From contig CACORF010000003.1 of NCBI GenBank assembly GCA_902629505.1, positions 11,939 to 75,938 on the forward strand: a stretch of DNA of 64,000 nucleotides, given 5' to 3'. The DNA is from an uncultured Bacteroidota bacterium (lineage in GTDB: Bacteria; Bacteroidota; Bacteroidia; Flavobacteriales; Flavobacteriaceae). Below, in pieces: positions 1 to 17,652 of this stretch. The position numbers and the translations under genes were made by a program. The number at the start of each line of letters is the position of its first letter. Within the stretch, counting starts at the first letter, position 1. The notes beneath the pieces were generated by a model that did no database searches, had not been told where the DNA came from, and saw only the letters and a program-made list of their open reading frames with translations.

Positions 1-169
1 CATAGAACTGCTCGTATTTAGTAAAATTATCTTGGCAAAACTTGTGATTACATCCAATATGCGGCATACCAGCATCCTGAGTGTTACCCAGGACATATAT
101 ATACTCTGATTGAGCATAAATAGGAATAGTAATGGATAGAATGTAGAAAAATTTTAAAAATCTAATCAA
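1..169 (-). CDS. PqqB-like MBL-fold metallo-hydrolase, N-terminal fragment (gene runs off the left edge)
   Basis: Not in the ORF track. The minus frame reads (TTG)MIRFLKFFYILSITIPIYAQSEYIYVLGNTQDAGMPHIGCNHKFCQDNFTKYEQFY. This is a short signal peptide followed by a 'VLG..QDAG.P..GC' motif that I recall from PqqB-family beta-lactamase-fold proteins of Flavobacteriia. An in-frame stop at 179..181 leaves only TTG 169..167 (or ATT) as a start. Confidence 0.4.
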   Translation of the reverse strand, partial: MIRFLKFFYILSITIPIYAQSEYIYVLGNTQDAGMPHIGCNHKFCQDNFTKYEQFY

Positions 170-2190
170 AATGAAAAATTAAGACCAAAGTAAAAATTTC
201 TTTTTGGAGCCGGCTCATAGTATCTTCTTCCAAAAGCATTTATCCTTATGTTATCATAAAACTCTTGATCAAAAAGATTATTAACTCCGATTGTAAATTC
301 ACTATTTTTCAAAATCCCTTTTGAATATTTAACATTAAAGATATTGTATGAGCTAATAAGAGTCTCGTTAAGATTATCAGCATACCTCTCTCCTATTAGG
401 CGATTAGTTAATATTAATGTTCTTTTTCTAGATAATTTGAGTAAGAGTTCCAAATCTAGCATTTGACTTGGAATTCCTGGGATTAAATTATCTGAAAGAT
501 CCGTACCATTAAATATAAATTCTTTGAATCTATTTTTACTCAATGTATAGTTAAGGCTAAAAAAACCTCGATCAAATGAAAGGGTAGAACTAAGCTCAAC
601 TCCCTTTCTAATTGTTGATCCCACATTTCTATAAAAGTTTTTACCAGGAAATTGTTCAATTTCATAAGGTAAAATTTCGTTATCTGAATTTGTAATATAA
701 GCTACAGCCTCAAAAGCAATATTTGTTAATGATTTTCTCCATCCAATCTCATAGTTGACAGCATTATTAGAGTTTAAGTCTTTATTAAATCCACTACCAT
801 CTGGGTTATTTGATAACTCATTTAAAGTTGGTGTCTCAAAGCTTGTTCCAAAGGAGAAAAACAAATTATCCGATGAATTGATTGTATATGATAAACCTAA
901 AGAGGGGTTGATTTTATCTAAATTAATTTTGTTACTTGAATCAATTCCAATAGAGTTGATATCATATCTAATACCATATCTAAAAAGGAAACCTGTAATG
1001 AATCTAGTTTGATTAACAAGGTAAAAACCTGTTGAATCAAAGTTTTCCATTTGACTTAAAGTTACATCTCCCCTTGAACCAAAATTATTTTTGAATCTTT
1101 TTCTATCATCTGATTGGCTCAAATGATCAAGACCCATAACAAAAGAGTTATTTTTGTTTTCAGAATTTTTATTTCTTGTAAATTTTGTTCCAAATCCAAA
1201 ATAATTTCTGTCAATTTCAATAACTCCACCAAAATTAAAAGGTAATTTTGAGTAAAAATCTCTTTTTTGATAGAAGAAATAGCTGTCAAAAAAGGAATCT
1301 TCGCTTTTCTTATAATTCCAAGATACCCCTGTTTTTAAGTGTTTTACCTTTTCATAAGTATCGTAATCAATATTATTTTTTCTAGCTTGTCTTCTATCAT
1401 CTTTAACTTCACTTAGTTTAAGACCGCCTGGGTCGAATGCATAAGGGCTATCAGTATAATTTATTTGCCAAATAATCTTGTTTTTTTGATTCAACTCATT
1501 AATATATTTAAGATTTAGTATTGTGGATTTGTAGTTACTTTGATCTCTATACCCGTTAGATTTTCTTTTATCATAATGGATTATTAGGTTTGAAGTTTCC
1601 CAGTTTAAAACTCTTGTCCTCTGAATAGATTGATATTGATAAGCTCCAAAGATTCCTGAAGTTCTATAATACTTTTCATCAGGATTAGACAAAGTATTTA
1701 TACTTATTACTCCACCAGAGGAGTTACCATATAAGTTTGCATTTGGACCTCTTAATATTTCAATGTTTGAAATCAACCCTAGTGGGAGATTGTCTAATTG
1801 ACTTTGTCCATCGGGAGTTGTCTCTGGAATACCATCAACTATTAACTTTATTCCTCTTATACCAAAAGCAGATCTTGCACCAAAACCTCTCATTGAAATC
1901 CTCATGTCTTGAGAGAAATTATTTGATGAGGTAGTAAAAACACCTGGTGTATTTTTTATAAAATCAGAAAATGAAGATTGTGAGCTGAAGTTTTTATCCT
2001 CACTAAAGCTTTTTAAAGTAACTGATAATGGAGCCTGCTTTTGAATCGTATTAATTTTAGTTGATTTAACAACTACATTTTCAAGATCTATAGTTTGAAT
2101 TGTATCTTGCAAATTACCAAAAACAAAAAATGGCGCTATTATTATAATTCTATTGATATACCCTAACATAGTCAATTTCGTAAGTTGCAC
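166..2190 (-). CDS. TonB-dependent outer-membrane receptor (plug plus beta-barrel)
   Basis: 674 aa. Plug segment 'ISMRGFGARS..IKLIVDGIPE..ISNIEILRGPNANLYGNSSGGVISINT', a long Y/N/S/G-rich barrel region, and a C-terminal aromatic end '...YFGLNFSF'. An alternative start is at M8 (2169). Confidence 0.85.
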   Translation of the reverse strand: MQLTKLTMLGYINRIIIIAPFFVFGNLQDTIQTIDLENVVVKSTKINTIQKQAPLSVTLKSFSEDKNFSSQSSFSDFIKNTPGVFTTSSNNFSQDMRISMRGFGARSAFGIRGIKLIVDGIPETTPDGQSQLDNLPLGLISNIEILRGPNANLYGNSSGGVISINTLSNPDEKYYRTSGIFGAYQYQSIQRTRVLNWETSNLIIHYDKRKSNGYRDQSNYKSTILNLKYINELNQKNKIIWQINYTDSPYAFDPGGLKLSEVKDDRRQARKNNIDYDTYEKVKHLKTGVSWNYKKSEDSFFDSYFFYQKRDFYSKLPFNFGGVIEIDRNYFGFGTKFTRNKNSENKNNSFVMGLDHLSQSDDRKRFKNNFGSRGDVTLSQMENFDSTGFYLVNQTRFITGFLFRYGIRYDINSIGIDSSNKINLDKINPSLGLSYTINSSDNLFFSFGTSFETPTLNELSNNPDGSGFNKDLNSNNAVNYEIGWRKSLTNIAFEAVAYITNSDNEILPYEIEQFPGKNFYRNVGSTIRKGVELSSTLSFDRGFFSLNYTLSKNRFKEFIFNGTDLSDNLIPGIPSQMLDLELLLKLSRKRTLILTNRLIGERYADNLNETLISSYNIFNVKYSKGILKNSEFTIGVNNLFDQEFYDNIRINAFGRRYYEPAPKRNFYFGLNFSF

Positions 2191-11491: not shown

Positions 11492-12523
11492 TTATATTAA
11501 TTGATTAAAGATTTTTTCACCTCCATACCTTATAACATCAGTAGCTGGAAGTCCAGTAATTTTTTCAGTCTTTTTTATAAATTCCTTTGCATCCTTATCA
11601 GACATTTCAACTGTATTAAGAGCAACACCGATGACTTTAGAATTTGGATAAGTACCTAAAACTGAAGATAAATCTTCATTCAGTTTTATAAATTTTTTTA
11701 AATCAGGAATTTTAATATTCTCTAGAGATCTCAATGAATCATTTCTTGCTATGTGGCACAAAATCATATGAGTTGGACATGTTCCTCTCATCAAAGGTAG
11801 TGTTGCTGAGCTTCCTGGGTGGAGAATTGAACCTTGACCCTCTACAATAACAATATCTTTATTTTTTTGCTCAACAACTGCTGCTTCAACAGCTCCACAT
11901 GCGTGGTCAAGCTTATATGCATCTAAAGGTATACCCTTTCCAGTTACAGTAATACCTACTTGTCCAGTAGCTACAAAGCCTGTTTTGATATGCTTATCTC
12001 TTAAGTATGAATATAATTCTAATCCAACTGTCATTTTCCCTGCAGCCATATCTGTTCCAATCATCAAAACTCTTTTGTTATTTAGACTAGCAGATTTTGC
12101 AGATCCTATTTTTGGTATAAATTTAGGTACTCTAGTATCCCATATCCATTGATTTTTTTCAGTTAAATATTTTTCAAACTGAGGAAAAACCTGGTCATGT
12201 AATCCATTGATTATTGACATTCCCTTACTTAAAGATTCTTTTATTACACTATCCCATGACTCAGGTCTGATTCCACCTGACGTCAACACTCCAAGTAGAA
12301 GAACATTTGCACCCAAAGACTTTGCTTTATTTATATCTTGAACTATTGGAATATCTTTTTTTATTATTGAGACCTCTGATATTTTCCTGCCTGCAAAAAC
12401 AGAGTCTATAACACACACAATTTCGTTATCAAGATATCTGAGTGCACTTATTCCCATTTTGCCATAGTCGTCATCAATGCTTGACTCCATCCATATAGCA
12501 ATCTTATCAGTTTCTTTCAACAT
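11492..12523 (-). CDS. DUF1611-family protein (DgcN-like putative N-acetyltransferase)
   Basis: 'IGTDMAAGKMTVGLEL', 'VATGQVGI' and 'VEGQGSILHPGSSATLPLMRG' match the conserved DUF1611 blocks as I remember them. The start overlaps the upstream epimerase stop by 17 nt. Confidence 0.75.
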   Translation of the reverse strand: MLKETDKIAIWMESSIDDDYGKMGISALRYLDNEIVCVIDSVFAGRKISEVSIIKKDIPIVQDINKAKSLGANVLLLGVLTSGGIRPESWDSVIKESLSKGMSIINGLHDQVFPQFEKYLTEKNQWIWDTRVPKFIPKIGSAKSASLNNKRVLMIGTDMAAGKMTVGLELYSYLRDKHIKTGFVATGQVGITVTGKGIPLDAYKLDHACGAVEAAVVEQKNKDIVIVEGQGSILHPGSSATLPLMRGTCPTHMILCHIARNDSLRSLENIKIPDLKKFIKLNEDLSSVLGTYPNSKVIGVALNTVEMSDKDAKEFIKKTEKITGLPATDVIRYGGEKIFNQLI

Positions 12524-13565
12524 AGCTATGTGGTTTTAGTTTTGCCCCATGACCTAATTTTGAACTAGTCTTGGTTATTCCATTCACCATTAAAGAGCCT
12601 TCACTAGGGTCCGGGTCTAAATTATAGTGAGAATCTAAATCAACAAAATCAATTATACCGGTAATAGATGCTCCTGCTGATATACTTACAGATGACTCAC
12701 TCATACAACCAATCATGGTTTTTAAACCATGGGATCTTGCAACATTCAATATTCTTAGAGCCTCTGTAATACCACCACATTTCATTAGCTTTAAGTTTAC
12801 ACCATCAACATACTGATAATGTTCAGCTACATCTTCTGAAAATCTACATGATTCATCAATAAAAATTGGAAGAGGTCTACCCTCAAATAAAAACTTAAGC
12901 TTATCTTCATCTCCCTCAACTAAAGGCTGCTCTATATATTCAGCTTTTCTTTCCGATAGCCATTTCATCATTAGTTTTGCCTCATCTAAAGACCATCCTC
13001 CATTTGCATCTACTCTTATGGCTACATTTGAGTTTTTTGTTGATTCAATGACCTGAGAATAGATTAGTTTATCATACTCTATTCCTTCATTAGATCCTAA
13101 TTTAATTTTTAATGCTTTAACCTGAGAATCCTGTAATATTAATTCTATCCTCTCTTTAACAATGTCTGGTGGATTAATCCCTATAGTTAAAGATGTGGGA
13201 ACATTGGTAGGAGGAAGTCCTAAAAGTTCCTGTAAAGACATATTTGCTTTTTTTGCCTTCCAATCCCAAAGTGCTATATCAAGGCCTGCTATGGCACATG
13301 CGGGTATATTTAAATCTTTAGCTCTTTGGTGGACTTCATATAAAGAAAGGTTTTCTACATTAGAATCTATTAATCTTTTTAAATGCTTTTCAACTTCTTG
13401 AGCAGAAGTAGCTCCTTCTGTTTTACCAGGAGCACATTCTCCCCATGCTGTGATACCATCTTTTATAAATTCAACAAAAAGGTTTTGAGATTTATCATGA
13501 ACACCTCTACTTATTTGGAGAGGAAATTTTTTCTTCAGATTTACAGTATGAAAATTAAATTCCAT
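12507..13565 (-). CDS. Enolase-superfamily (MLE subgroup) dipeptide epimerase / N-acyl amino acid racemase
   Basis: 'ALKIKLG', 'RVDANGGW', 'YIEQPL', 'IFIDESC' and 'LKLMKCGG': canonical metal-ligand and catalytic-lysine blocks of L-Ala-D/L-Glu epimerase-type enzymes. Confidence 0.8.
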   Translation of the reverse strand: MEFNFHTVNLKKKFPLQISRGVHDKSQNLFVEFIKDGITAWGECAPGKTEGATSAQEVEKHLKRLIDSNVENLSLYEVHQRAKDLNIPACAIAGLDIALWDWKAKKANMSLQELLGLPPTNVPTSLTIGINPPDIVKERIELILQDSQVKALKIKLGSNEGIEYDKLIYSQVIESTKNSNVAIRVDANGGWSLDEAKLMMKWLSERKAEYIEQPLVEGDEDKLKFLFEGRPLPIFIDESCRFSEDVAEHYQYVDGVNLKLMKCGGITEALRILNVARSHGLKTMIGCMSESSVSISAGASITGIIDFVDLDSHYNLDPDPSEGSLMVNGITKTSSKLGHGAKLKPHSYVERN

Positions 13566-13582: not shown

Positions 13583-13924
13583 CTAAGTTAATGGTTTTTC
13601 TTGATTTTTTTCCTTAAAACTATCAAGCGCCTCTCTTGAATAAATAGGGGTTCTATTTCTTCTTGTTATCCATTTAAGCTTTCCCTTTTCTTGATACCTA
13701 ATTAAAGTACTTTCGCTTAAACCAAGATATTCAGCTGCTTGTTTTCTTGGAAGATATTTAATGTGATCGGGTAAATTTGAACTATCAAAATCAGAAGACA
13801 TTATCTCAAGAAAACTTCTTTCGATTTGAATATCTTCTTTCTTTACTCTTCTTCCACCAAAGTAAACAGATCTTACTCCATCAGGAAAATAAATTTGGTT
13901 TATGTCATCCCACTTCTTGTTCAT
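13583..13924 (-). CDS. Small helix-turn-helix (excisionase/MerR-type HTH_17-like) DNA-binding protein
   Basis: 'RKQAAEYLGLSESTLIRYQEKGKLKW' is a typical excisionase-family HTH. 113 aa. Confidence 0.5.
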   Translation of the reverse strand: MNKKWDDINQIYFPDGVRSVYFGGRRVKKEDIQIERSFLEIMSSDFDSSNLPDHIKYLPRKQAAEYLGLSESTLIRYQEKGKLKWITRRNRTPIYSREALDSFKEKNQEKPLT

Positions 13925-13962
13925 TATTTTTTTAGCTAGTCTGTAAAGGTAGAAAAAAAAAT

Positions 13963-13970
13963 TATATTTG
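13963..13970 (+). promoter_or_regulatory. Candidate Bacteroidota -7 promoter box TATATTTG upstream of the plug-like gene pair
   Basis: Exact match to TAnnTTTG, 27 nt upstream of ATG 13998. No clear -33 TTTG. Confidence 0.35.
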
Positions 13971-13997: not shown

Positions 13998-14522
13998 ATG
14001 CAAAAATTCCTATCATTTCTATTTATTTTCTCTGTCTCAATTTCATTAAACGCTCAATCAGGAAGTAGTGGATACAACCCATCAAATTACGGGACAAGAA
14101 ACTATGGATCAGGAATCAATTCATTTAAATATGGAATCGTTGGTTCAAATCAAGATGCAACAGGATCACCTGTAGGGTTAGTTTCTGCAATAACTAGAAG
14201 AATTCCTAGTGCAAAGAAAATTTCTGATAAATTTGGGAATGAAAATATATCTCTTCGAGGTAGGGGTTCAGTTCAAGCTGCCGGAGATGAGGTGCTATGG
14301 GAAATTGATGGTGTTACGTTTGAATCTCCCCCGATGCTCAGTGTAAATGAAGTTGTTTACGTTGAAGTTATTAAGGGACTGGCAGCAACTAATAAATATG
14401 GTTCCGATGGAGCTGCTGGTGTTATTATTGTAAAAACATCCGTTAATGCTTCAAATTATGATTTGATCAATTCTCCAAAAAATTTATGGAGAAGTGTTAC
14501 TGAAAAAAGAATTAAGAAGTAA
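13998..14522 (+). CDS. Secreted plug-domain-like mini-protein, paralog 1 (no barrel)
   Basis: Signal peptide MQKFLSFLFIFSVSISLNAQ. The core 'ISLRGRGSVQAAGDEVLWEIDGVTFE..VNEVVYVEVIKGLAATNKYGSDGAAGVIIVKT' parallels the TonB-dependent-receptor plug block (IRG..S...PL.VIDG....I.SIEVLK..sA.a.YG.rGANGVI.ITT). Confidence 0.6.
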   Translation: MQKFLSFLFIFSVSISLNAQSGSSGYNPSNYGTRNYGSGINSFKYGIVGSNQDATGSPVGLVSAITRRIPSAKKISDKFGNENISLRGRGSVQAAGDEVLWEIDGVTFESPPMLSVNEVVYVEVIKGLAATNKYGSDGAAGVIIVKTSVNASNYDLINSPKNLWRSVTEKRIKK

Positions 14523-14567
14523 TTAACACTATCCTCTTTAACTTTTATTTACTTTAGTTTCAATTAT

Positions 14568-15050
14568 ATGAGATACACACAACTAATATTAATTATACTT
14601 TTTAGTAACTTATCATTCGCACAAGAAGATAAAATTGCTCAGGCACAGCAATCTGCTGTATCATCTATGTCATTGGTCGACGCCCTTTCTTCAAGAATAC
14701 CCGGAGCAAAAAGAGTTACTGATAGAATGGGAAATAAAAACATTGCTATCAGAGGTAGGCAGTCATTCAAAACTGCTGGCAATGAAGTTCTTTGGGAAAT
14801 TGATGGAGTAATTTACACTAACCCACCAGAATTATATGCAAATCAAGTAAAATATGTGGAAGTTCTTAGTGGATTAGCTGCAACGAATAAGTATGGAAGT
14901 GAAGGAGCTGCAGGAGTAATTGTTGTAAAAACTAATGTAAGTGAAGAAAAGTTTAATAGCAGAAAAAATCTTTGGAATAGATCATCACAATTTCCGAAAA
15001 AAAAGAAAGACAAAAAATCTAAGAAAAAAAAGAAGGACAAAAAATCCTAA
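14568..15050 (+). CDS. Secreted plug-domain-like mini-protein, paralog 2, with a lysine-rich tail
   Basis: Signal peptide MRYTQLILIILFSNLSFAQ. 'IAIRGRQSFKTAGNEVLWEIDGVIYT..VKYVEVLSGLAATNKYGSEGAAGVIVVKT' is collinear with paralog 1. C-terminus KKKKDKKSKKKKKDKKS. Confidence 0.6.
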   Translation: MRYTQLILIILFSNLSFAQEDKIAQAQQSAVSSMSLVDALSSRIPGAKRVTDRMGNKNIAIRGRQSFKTAGNEVLWEIDGVIYTNPPELYANQVKYVEVLSGLAATNKYGSEGAAGVIVVKTNVSEEKFNSRKNLWNRSSQFPKKKKDKKSKKKKKDKKS

Positions 15051-15094: not shown

Positions 15095-15586
15095 TTGAAA
15101 ACAATAATTTTTAATACGTTATGTTTTTTGTTATTGTTTAGTTGCAACTCAGGAGTTACAAATAGTAAGAGTTTTTCTGATTTAGATGCTTTGCAGCTTA
15201 AAACTTCATTTATTGATTTAAACGAGAATAATTCAGATCTATCAGTCTATCAAAACGGTAAGATTGTGGTTAGTTATTGGGCTACATGGTGTGCCCCCTG
15301 TATAAAGGAAATGCCTGGCATCAAAAAAGCTGAAGAAATACTAAAAGAGTACGGATATACTTTTTTATTAATTTCTGATGAAACAGTAGATAAAATATCA
15401 AAGTTTAAAAACGAATGGAATTTTGATTTCAATTTTTTAAAATCCACTAAATCATTTGAGACACTTGGAGTGTATGCCATGCCTACTTCGTATATATTTG
15501 ATGAAAATGGGCAAATAATTGAAACTATAGTTGGAGCCATTGAATGGGATTCTGAAGAAATGATAAATAAATTGAAAATGTTGTAA
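15095..15586 (+). CDS. TlpA/ResA-like thioredoxin-fold thiol:disulfide oxidoreductase lipoprotein
   Basis: Lipobox LLLFSC, 'YWATWCAPCIKEMP' CxxC motif, and a TTG start (no in-frame ATG near the N-terminus). Confidence 0.8.
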   Translation: MKTIIFNTLCFLLLFSCNSGVTNSKSFSDLDALQLKTSFIDLNENNSDLSVYQNGKIVVSYWATWCAPCIKEMPGIKKAEEILKEYGYTFLLISDETVDKISKFKNEWNFDFNFLKSTKSFETLGVYAMPTSYIFDENGQIIETIVGAIEWDSEEMINKLKML

Positions 15587-15587
15587 T

Positions 15588-16787
15588 ATGAGAAATTTTG
15601 TTTTTGCCATATCCTTGCTAATGCTTTTTTCTTGCGCATCAAATGATATTATAATAGAAGAAATTTCTTTTATATATAACAACAATAATGCACAACCTAG
15701 TTTAGTTTCAAATAATGGTAACTTATCGTTGACTTGGATTTCTAGCGATGAGGACATGAATTCTATTTTAAATTTTAGACAATTTAAAAATAATGAATGG
15801 TCTAATACTTTAAGCTTGGCTGAAGGCTCCGACTGGTTTGTTAATTGGGCTGACTTTCCAACTCATGCAATAAGCGGTAACTTAGTTTTAACAAGTTATC
15901 TAAAAAAATCTGCCTCCGGTACATATACCTATGATGTTTTTTTAAGTCTACATAAATTATCTGGAGAAAAAGTAAAAGAAGACTTTATATTAAATACTGA
16001 TGGCTTTAAAGCAGAACATGGTTTTGTAAGTATATCCTCAAATGATAATGAAGGGTTTTTAGTTACTTGGTTAGATGGAAGAAATACTGTCAAGAAAGAT
16101 GAGAAAGGGGATCACAAGCCCATGACTATTCGATATGCAGAAATAACAAATGCCGGAGATATTATAAATGAGACTGAACTTGATTCATCAGTATGTGATT
16201 GTTGTCAGACATCAATGACATATACCAATAAAGGACCTGTTGTTGTCTATCGAGATAGAACTGAAGAAGAAGTGCGGGATATATATTTTACTCGAAATAT
16301 AAATAAGGTTTGGGAAAGCCCCATACCAGTTCATAATGATGGATGGGTAATATATGGATGTCCAGTTAATGGCCCTAAAGTTGTCTCTAATTCAAATAAT
16401 ATTGCAGTAAGTTGGTTCACTGTTTCAGATGGAATACCAAAAGTCAATCTTTCATTTTCAGAATCTTATGGCTCTTCTTTCAGTAACCCAATAAAAATTA
16501 ATGACCTTAATGCTATTGGTAGAGTTGATACTGCATTCTTAAATGAACAAGAAGTAATAGTAAGTTATATGGAAGGTGATGATGATGGGACTTATTTAAG
16601 AATAAAAAAAGTTTCAATAAATGGAATAGTTTCAAAGCCCATTACAATCTCTAAAATTGACAGTGGACGAGGCACAGGAGTACCACAATTAGAAATACTA
16701 GATGATGAAATATTTATTGTTTGGACTGTTTTTGATAATTTAAGTAATCAATTAAAAACGGTAAAATTAAGCTCTAAAGATGTTTAA
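15588..16787 (+). CDS. Uncharacterised lipoprotein, probably beta-propeller/sialidase-fold-like, with conserved-looking Cys motifs
   Basis: Lipobox LMLFSC. Repetitive beta-strand-like blocks (VSW/VTW/IVW). 'SSVCDCCQTSM' and 'YGCPVNGPK'. Starts 1 nt after the TlpA stop. Confidence 0.45.
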   Translation: MRNFVFAISLLMLFSCASNDIIIEEISFIYNNNNAQPSLVSNNGNLSLTWISSDEDMNSILNFRQFKNNEWSNTLSLAEGSDWFVNWADFPTHAISGNLVLTSYLKKSASGTYTYDVFLSLHKLSGEKVKEDFILNTDGFKAEHGFVSISSNDNEGFLVTWLDGRNTVKKDEKGDHKPMTIRYAEITNAGDIINETELDSSVCDCCQTSMTYTNKGPVVVYRDRTEEEVRDIYFTRNINKVWESPIPVHNDGWVIYGCPVNGPKVVSNSNNIAVSWFTVSDGIPKVNLSFSESYGSSFSNPIKINDLNAIGRVDTAFLNEQEVIVSYMEGDDDGTYLRIKKVSINGIVSKPITISKIDSGRGTGVPQLEILDDEIFIVWTVFDNLSNQLKTVKLSSKDV

Positions 16788-17652
16788 ATCATTCAAAGAT
16801 TATTACTTCTTAATACTATTAATATTATTTAGTTGTTCAACTGAACAGGAAAAGGAAATTTATGAAAGCGCTGTTGTCCTTGAATCTATAGTTTTACCAA
16901 AAGTCATAAATGAAACTTCAGGTTTAGAAATTCTAAATGAAGTTTTTTTAACTCATAATGATTCTGGAGGTGAACCTAGTTTATATTTTTTTAACCTTAA
17001 TGGTGAGATCATAAATTCTGTAAAGTTGGATGAGGAATCTTCCTGGCAAATTTATAACATTGATTGGGAAGATGTTGCAGCTGACGAAGATTATATATTC
17101 ATTGCTGATACAGGTAACAATTTTGGAAATAGAGACAATCTTAACATTATAAAAGTTAAGACAAATGACTTTAGTGTCGATGATAAAATTGATGTTGCCT
17201 ATAAAGATCAAAAAACATTTATTCCTAGACCAAAACATAAGTATGATGCTGAAGCATTATTTTTAATTGAAGATAAAATTGCAATATTATCTAAGGATAG
17301 AAGTAATTTATTTACTGATTTATATTTAATTGATAAAGAAAGTAGTTCAAGACAAGTCCTTGAAAGTAAAGTTACATATGATGTAAATTCTCTTATTACT
17401 GGAGGTGACTATAACGAGGAGCTAAGACTTCTTGCCCTTGTCAGTTATAGTTCAAAGGGTAGTCAGTACTTAATATTATTTGAAAATTTTAGCTTAGAGA
17501 ACTTAGCAGAGAAGAAATTTAGAAAAATTAAAATTCCAATTGAGAGAGCACAGATTGAAGCAATAAAAATAATTGACAATTCGACATTTTGGATTACGTC
17601 TGAGGATGAAGGGGTTGGAAGTCCTTATATGTATAAAGTAAGAGTAAAATAA
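16780..17652 (+). CDS. Uncharacterised lipoprotein (beta-propeller-like; 'ETSGL', 'NDSGG', 'DWEDVA..IADTGNNFGNR' motifs)
   Basis: Lipobox LILFSC. Overlaps the upstream gene by 8 nt. The motifs resemble SdiA-regulated/phytase-like propeller families, but I cannot assign a family. Confidence 0.45.
   Translation: MFKSFKDYYFLILLILFSCSTEQEKEIYESAVVLESIVLPKVINETSGLEILNEVFLTHNDSGGEPSLYFFNLNGEIINSVKLDEESSWQIYNIDWEDVAADEDYIFIADTGNNFGNRDNLNIIKVKTNDFSVDDKIDVAYKDQKTFIPRPKHKYDAEALFLIEDKIAILSKDRSNLFTDLYLIDKESSSRQVLESKVTYDVNSLITGGDYNEELRLLALVSYSSKGSQYLILFENFSLENLAEKKFRKIKIPIERAQIEAIKIIDNSTFWITSEDEGVGSPYMYKVRVK

Follow-up and report, generated by a model that had tools for sequence, protein, structure and literature searches.

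PlugA and PlugB are two small adjacent genes in a 64,000-nucleotide stretch of DNA, referred to here as the window, from the Flavobacteriaceae assembly GCA_902629505.1 (contig CACORF010000003.1, positions 11,939-75,938 of the forward strand). The host is an uncultured marine member of the Flavobacteriales, and the window is AT-rich, with a G+C content of about 27-38%. The two genes encode genuine, selectively maintained small proteins with one SusC-type plug-fold domain each. PlugA (13998-14522, + strand) has 174 amino acids: a putative signal peptide (residues 1-19), a conserved extension that is predicted to be disordered (20-59), the plug core (60-148), and an NLW motif with a short basic tail (162-174). 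PlugB (14568-15050, + strand) has 160 amino acids: a putative signal peptide (1-18), the plug core (28-124), and an NLW motif with a poly-lysine tail (134-160, DNA positions 14967-15047). They are 56% identical over 117 amino acids in a BLASTP comparison (E = 2e-46), and the blocks EVLWEIDGV and GLAATNKYGS.GAAGVI.VKT lie inside the alignment. An initial annotation of the window had called these same-strand open reading frames (ORFs) of 174 and 160 amino acids clear paralogs, and this is correct.

Both proteins appear to be exported. Neither has room for a hidden N-terminal domain, since each ORF starts at the first possible start codon that follows an in-frame stop. Inspection of the sequences by eye reveals putative signal peptidase I signal peptides at both N-termini, with an n-region, a hydrophobic h-region, and an A-x-A-like cleavage site followed by glutamine. 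The predicted cleavage falls between SLNA and QSG in PlugA and between SFA and QED in PlugB, whose mature N-terminus reads QEDKIAQAQQ. Glutamine at position +1 is expected from the Q-rule of Bacteroidetes (PMC5837995), and the earlier remark that each ORF has a cleavable-looking signal peptide agrees with this reading. The mature proteins contain no cysteine and are basic, with isoelectric points of 9.5 for PlugA and 10.1 for PlugB. After the conserved NLW motif the PlugB tail is about 50% lysine and arginine across orthologs and varies in length, and the PlugA tail is short and basic. The poly-lysine tail is encoded by long runs of A (window 14995-15047) and the PlugB orthologs range from 148 to 163 amino acids; slippage-prone sequence may be the cause of this variation. 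An ORF on the opposite strand (14843-15040) was rejected as an artefact of the A-rich lysine tract.

Sequence profiles relate both proteins to the plug domain of TonB-dependent transporters. PlugB matches the Pfam Plug family (PF07715) with 33.6 bits, above the gathering score of 23.9 (E = 6e-8), and its residues 28-117 align to positions 17-107 of the 107-position model. The core had been taken for the N-terminal half of a plug, and this has to be revised because the match spans nearly the whole model. PlugA alone has no Pfam match. Both match the plug region of the SusC/RagA family TIGR04056 (PlugA, E = 5e-11, 41.6 bits; PlugB, E = 3e-14, 52.2 bits), with scores far below the full-length family cutoff of 368. 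There are also weak matches to the SusC signature TIGR04057 (25.1 and 25.8 bits), likewise far below the cutoff of 46.2. A sequence search of the PDB with PlugB gave its best matches to 6zlt_B and 5t3r_D (E = 2e-5), both of them chains of SusC homologs. The PlugA family was aligned to SusC fragments by hhalign with a probability of 95-96%, covering residues 60-149.

Structure prediction leads to the same fold. AlphaFold2 models were built from 31-37 family sequences and have pLDDT values of 71.8 for PlugB and 64.5 for PlugA, with residues 19-57 of PlugA predicted to be disordered (pLDDT below 50). When the protein of a distant relative (locus L026) was used as a query in the homolog search, only three proteins were returned, and the alignment for structure prediction was not deepened. 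In Foldseek searches the only credible matches of both models are transporter plugs (probability 0.87-1.0, E = 7e-4 to 0.09), as the initial annotation had anticipated. They include the plugs of SusC proteins from levan and dextran systems, Cir, BtuB (111 columns), and FrpB, and PlugA finds SusC plugs with E = 7e-4 and probability 1.0. All other matches are far worse, with E values of at least 0.4. The plug domain is recognized in PlugB by Pfam and in PlugA through paralogy, TIGR04056, hhalign, and Foldseek, and it is the sole recognizable domain in each complete ORF.

PlugA and PlugB lack the other parts of a transporter. The proteins stop 26-36 amino acids past the plug core, and the 22-stranded barrel (PF00593) is absent from both of them and from every syntenic locus. 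The ORF map and the domain search confirm the earlier observation that no barrel follows the pair and that the next gene encodes a thioredoxin-fold lipoprotein. No TonB box is detectable at either mature N-terminus, where one had been thought worth looking for. For PlugA, the hhalign alignment with two SusC sequences does not begin before residue 60, and the SusC segment DEVVVIGYGT stays outside it; in PlugB the mature start QEDKIAQAQQSAVSS falls where the SusC sequences are already past the box. The domain search found no lipobox, no type IX secretion C-terminal domain, and no CarboxypepD_reg domain in either protein, the last having been suggested as a possible match. Peptidase_M56, an HExxH zinc protease domain, has no match in either window protein and is present only in relatives.

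The near-complete plug match could mean that the two proteins are plugs supplied in trans to a barrel encoded without one of its own. The cork and the barrel of FhuA, expressed separately, can reportedly reconstitute in E. coli, a result associated with Braun and co-workers in 2003. However, there is no plug-less barrel in the 64-kb window or in about 25 flanking regions. The single complete TonB-dependent receptor of the window (166-2190, - strand; best NCBIfam match PqqU, 280 bits against a cutoff of 1200) has its own plug as well as a barrel. In addition, TonB could not pull a plug without a TonB box, and transporter plugs do not have a poly-lysine tail. Overall, supply in trans is quite improbable. 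The window receptor had been said to contain the same block as the pair; the receptor is indeed complete, but it lies 12 kb away and is only a distant relative (30% identity over 73 amino acids, E = 0.012).

The pair is conserved in related marine bacteria. Clustering at 90% identity gave 464 clusters of PlugB homologs and 487 of PlugA homologs. Among the matches listed, the homologs are 140-201 amino acids long and come mostly from ocean metagenomes, including Tara; for most of them PF07715 is the only precomputed Pfam domain, and the remainder have none. Synteny was compared in 22 species-representative genomes together with metagenome contigs, giving about 25 loci. The gene order recurs in related marine Flavobacteriales: an HTH_17 gene on the - strand; PlugA, PlugB, the thioredoxin gene, Lipo399, and Lipo290 on the + strand; and then LpxR on the - strand and GNAT. 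No full-length receptor was found at the syntenic site in any of these loci, and the survey of relatives for such a receptor, proposed in the initial annotation, thus favors stand-alone genes. The single-cell and metagenome-assembled genomes (MAGs) that carry the locus are labelled Candidatus Marisimplicoccus, Cryomorphaceae MED-G11, or "uncultured Bacteroidetes".

The two genes are not always found together. PlugA is missing in four genomes (L016, L019, L020, and L021), which have a PlugB-type gene alone, so the pair is not obligatory. The absence of PlugA from some genomes makes an obligate heterodimer unlikely, and no lipoprotein partner is strictly required. These patterns of loss mark PlugB as the core component, with PlugA as a lineage-specific and dispensable duplicate. 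In one locus (L023, 10202-10594) there is a third, degenerate plug-like ORF of 130 amino acids between Lipo399 and Lipo290, which is missing the RGR..AGDEVLW segment. PlugA is split over two frames in a single-cell genome (L005, 7672-8192), and a JGI metagenome contig (L027, 4853-7108) has fragmented genes downstream of the pair; these are either sequencing errors or local decay. The contig L014 (JAURPH010000001.1), assigned to a Thermodesulfobacteriota MAG, has the flavobacterial locus with 73-79% amino acid identity and is probably a binning contaminant.

The closest larger relatives of the pair are other barrel-less plug proteins of Bacteroidota, not receptors. A family profile searched against 1.84 billion representative proteins had 1867 matches at E values of 1e-3 or less, including 8 at 1e-30 or less. 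Domains were tallied over the 78 best matches longer than 200 amino acids. CarboxypepD_reg is present in 41 of these, the BlaR1 peptidase M56 in 21, TonB_C in 8, and a type IX secretion C-terminal tail in 5; at most one has a TonB_dep_Rec barrel, and several also have tetratricopeptide repeats (TPR). According to profile mapping the M56 relatives carry three to four C-terminal half-plug repeats, corresponding to profile positions of about 70-130, and secreted relatives of 230-400 amino acids are built of three to five such repeats. Other free-standing plugs of 130-195 amino acids have signal peptides or lipoboxes and basic tails. The signature WD(V/I)DG...PP...YGSxGxGGVIVV is common to the mini-plugs and the CarboxypepD_reg-Plug proteins, and related mini-plugs end in NLW..PPLTKEER and a basic helix. 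At one locus (L033, 6001-9470), P0270 and its neighbor are tandem barrel-less CarboxypepD_reg-Plug-TPR proteins of 568 and 554 amino acids with a TonB-box-like LDEVNV strand. Their transcription runs divergently from that of an extracytoplasmic function (ECF) sigma factor gene and two unknown genes.

Proteins of this kind have been catalogued before. M56 with Plug ranks as one of the nine most frequent M56 architectures, and for about 96% of BlaR homologs a BlaI-like repressor is encoded no more than five genes away (PMC13492132). TonB homologs extended by M56 or CarboxypepD_reg have been described as uncharacterised (PMC10350073). A PlugA ortholog (P0229) already bears the NCBI name "TonB-dependent receptor plug domain-containing protein". 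No functional study of stand-alone or barrel-less plug proteins was found in the literature, in agreement with the earlier statement that none is characterised, but the architectures themselves are already on record. The pair is not unique; it is a small, clean member of a catalogued and functionally uncharacterised class of barrel-less plugs.

Sequence divergence indicates purifying selection on both genes. Between closest orthologs the ratio of nonsynonymous to synonymous divergence (dN/dS, Nei-Gojobori method) is 0.16 for PlugA, compared with L024, and 0.13 for PlugB, compared with L005, with dN of 0.08-0.09 and dS of 0.54-0.66; overall the ratios are about 0.1-0.16, close to those of the genes around them. 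In nearly all other ortholog pairs dN is 0.08-0.34 and dS is saturated (above 1), and this range equals that of the neighboring genes. The lineage includes a single-contig MAG of 1.1 Mb (L010), which suggests that its genomes are small and that useless genes are unlikely to persist in them.

An origin of PlugA and PlugB as decaying fragments of a former full-length SusC-like receptor has to be considered. Their signature is of the SusC/RagA type with partial matches to TIGR04056 and TIGR04057, and the plug genes head a run of lipoprotein genes that resembles a transporter-lipoprotein operon. The strings NYGTRN and DATGS of PlugA also resemble, by eye, the GYGTxKK..TGS region that follows the TonB box of SusC. 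On the other hand, the two ORFs are intact and keep their length across hundreds of clusters, each has its own putative signal peptide with glutamine at +1, and the dN/dS values are low. There is no full-length receptor at any syntenic locus, and barrels are lacking in the closest relatives as well. An origin as pseudogene debris is effectively excluded, and the view of the initial annotation that the pair is a maintained stand-alone module is supported.

The plug genes are followed by three lipoprotein genes on the same strand. The first (15095-15586, +) encodes a TlpA/ResA-like thioredoxin-fold lipoprotein (Redoxin, E = 1e-14; ResA-like, E = 2e-19). It is unlikely to act on the plug proteins, since these have no cysteine in their mature form and cannot be its substrates. 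Lipo399 (15588-16787, +) begins 1 nucleotide past the thioredoxin gene and encodes a family-less lipoprotein of 399 amino acids that has no sequence match in Pfam, NCBIfam, or the PDB and is conserved in 20 loci. Its conserved motifs CDCCQT and GCPVNGP, together with its position directly after the TlpA-like gene, raise the possibility that it may be a redox client of that thioredoxin. Lipo290 (16780-17652, +) overlaps Lipo399 by 8 nucleotides and encodes a lipoprotein of 290 amino acids with a weak phytase-like or beta-propeller-like signal (Phytase-like, E = 0.024, below threshold). It is the most consistently kept downstream partner. Lipo399 and Lipo290 have no usable match in Pfam, NCBIfam, or the PDB and so give no functional lead, and the database names for the five locus proteins are uninformative. 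The intervals are 45 nucleotides between PlugA and PlugB and 44 between PlugB and the thioredoxin gene, and the three lipoprotein genes abut or overlap. No terminator-like site lies between PlugA, PlugB, and the thioredoxin gene, and the plug genes are probably co-transcribed with the three envelope lipoprotein genes.

Upstream of PlugA, a divergent gene (13583-13924, - strand) encodes an HTH_17 protein of 113 amino acids (30 bits against a threshold of 27). This gene lies beside the plug genes in every locus spanning that position, except in the distant loci L026 and L028, and its product is a possible local regulator of the plug locus. The -7 promoter box of Bacteroidetes has the consensus TAnnTTTG, and the sequence TATATTTG (13963-13970, +) fits it 35 nucleotides upstream of the PlugA start codon. 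The motif occurs at the same -35 offset in L006, L010, L012, L017, and L024, within a conserved intergenic block, and is weak evidence for a PlugA promoter box in AT-rich DNA. A scan with the sigma-70 consensus gave no more matches than shuffled sequence, and that consensus is not applicable to Bacteroidetes. The block TTTTTAGCTAGTCTGTAAAGGTAGAAAAAAAA between the HTH_17 gene and PlugA (window 13925-13960) is conserved in the orthologous intergenic regions and is a possible operator or shared promoter region. An Rfam scan of the whole window found one tRNA only and no riboswitch or other RNA. A gene pair on the - strand (11492-13565) encodes a DgcN-like N-acetyltransferase (DUF1611) and a DgcA-like N-acetyl-D-Glu racemase, both below equivalog cutoffs, and even L026 and L028, the relatives farthest removed, have this pair beside the plug locus.

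Taken as a whole, the evidence leads us to favor, tentatively and at somewhat less than an even chance, a reading in which PlugA and PlugB form a soluble, exported, TonB-independent plug module with a binding or adaptor role in the periplasm. The proteins would be exported by the Sec and signal peptidase I route without lipidation. Their conserved plug loops would contact a protein partner or a small ligand, and a binding or adaptor role seems most likely by analogy with the closest relatives. The polybasic tail could hold the protein on an anionic surface of the envelope, such as membrane head groups, lipopolysaccharide, or peptidoglycan. The pair belongs to a set of barrel-less plug-like modules found throughout Bacteroidota, which are free-standing, placed behind CarboxypepD_reg, or repeated in the extracytoplasmic region of BlaR1/M56-type membrane sensors. 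The homology, the fold class, the missing barrel and TonB box, the conservation, the purifying selection, and the kind of closest relatives are shown by the analysis; the periplasmic location, the binding role, the function of the tail, and the operon structure are inferred.

Several observations weigh against this reading. The structural models are of moderate confidence (pLDDT 72 and 65), and Foldseek TM-scores are only 0.31-0.41 with root mean square deviations of 5.6-10.7 Å; because the TM-scores are low, the fold assignment leans jointly on sequence and structure. The downstream partners are inconstant. The MED-G11 genomes L010 and L015 keep both plugs and Lipo290 without the thioredoxin or Lipo399, and the most distant loci, L026 and L028 (46% identity), have a single plug gene of 170 amino acids with no downstream partners. 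In these two loci the plug gene adjoins the DgcA-like racemase gene. The gene contexts of more distant mini-plugs differ too, and the neighborhood therefore does not yield a function. A further difficulty is that TonB interaction may be ancestral in the mini-plug clade. The free-standing relative P0245, a metagenome protein of 183 amino acids (L031, 1172-1723), has a mature chain that opens with LNEVVV, a perfect SusC-type TonB box right after the signal peptide, and the CarboxypepD_reg-Plug relatives keep a TonB-box-like L.EV.[VI] strand. With its mature N-terminus QTSVTLNEVVVSEQDKK and a basic tail after the plug, P0245 looks like a soluble TonB-box-bearing protein.

These relatives also bear on the idea that PlugA and PlugB are soluble TonB-binding decoys or regulators, which would compete with receptors for the C-terminal domain of TonB and so tune energised uptake. 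Besides the TonB box of P0245 and the retained L.EV.[VI] strand, TonB_C in 8 of the 78 closest larger relatives points in this direction. The window proteins themselves do not fit, however: no TonB box is detectable in either, the mature start of PlugB aligns after the box region, and the extension of PlugA is polar, with predicted disorder. A decoy function is thus rather unlikely.

Another explanation retains a binding function and makes the proteins periplasmic shuttles or buffers for a small nutrient, which would be handed on from an outer membrane receptor or captured together with the downstream lipoproteins. Plug loops bind substrate in transporters, and the loops of the pair are conserved, with invariant A70-G71 and P86-P87. 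In one lineage the mini-plug relative P0251 lies divergently beside a complete receptor of 678 amino acids (L034, 3912-6579); over its full length, this receptor shares 43% identity with the only TonB-dependent receptor of the window. However, this adjacency was not reproduced for P0250, a member of another mini-plug lineage, and a link of mini-plugs to this type of receptor is no more than a side observation. The window receptor is 12 kb from the pair, and no ligand-binding motif is known. A ligand shuttle is unlikely, a little less so than a TonB decoy, and the more general binding or adaptor module is preferred.

A second job for the plug fold would be of wide interest. Marine and gut Bacteroidota rely on TonB-dependent transporters as their main route of high-affinity uptake, and the plug has so far been treated as meaningful only inside a barrel. 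The presence of one or two free plug genes under purifying selection in apparently small genomes, together with nearest relatives in the sensor regions of BlaR-like proteases, points to a function of the fold that is independent of the barrel. Finding it could explain many proteins annotated as "plug domain-containing" or as M56-Plug. A more far-reaching and doubtful possibility is that the plug fold is also a self-contained interaction or sensing domain of the periplasm, found widely among Bacteroidota, and that the mini-plugs are the minimal form of an undescribed envelope signalling or TonB-linked system. On this view the domain would stand free in marine flavobacteria with small genomes, form the repeated sensor of BlaR1/M56-type signalling proteases, and follow CarboxypepD_reg domains where a TonB box is retained. 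If so, they would offer an experimentally tractable version of that system. If their function proves to be a minor structural one, the result would be no more than a tidy annotation note.

Among known systems, the window proteins closely resemble the plugs of SusC/RagA-type TonB-dependent transporters (for example BT1763; PDB 6zlt, 5t3r, and 8a9y). They share the motifs RG.xS, xxxxDG, and VEVLxGxAAxxxYGSxGAxGVIxVxT with these plugs and are about 33% identical to them over 90 aligned residues, and SusC/RagA plugs are the best matches in Foldseek and in the PDB. The 22-strand barrel, the TonB box, and the N-terminal CarboxypepD_reg extension of the transporters are all missing from the window proteins, which end in NLW and a basic tail and have family-specific invariant residues W76 and P86-P87. 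The CarboxypepD_reg-Plug(-TPR) proteins (for example P0247, P0264, and P0270) are the closest larger relatives (E = 4e-36 to 1e-15). P0247 has a C-terminus with NLW and basic residues like that of the pair, and P0270 also occurs in tandem. In contrast to the window proteins, they are 250-1080 amino acids long and have an N-terminal CarboxypepD_reg domain, the L.EV.[VI] strand, and often TPR. One of them adjoins an ECF sigma factor gene. In the BlaR1/M56 sensors (InterPro architecture M56+Plug) this plug-like module likewise occurs without a barrel, as an extracytoplasmic part of a membrane-bound protein. Whereas they have three to four half-plug repeats on a transmembrane zinc protease, PlugA and PlugB each have one full plug and no anchor or protease. 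Finally, the isolated plug domains of FepA, FhuA, and a neisserial transporter have been studied in vitro. They are barrel-free like the pair, but they are laboratory constructs cut from full receptors, while PlugA and PlugB are natural genes whose products have their own putative signal peptides.

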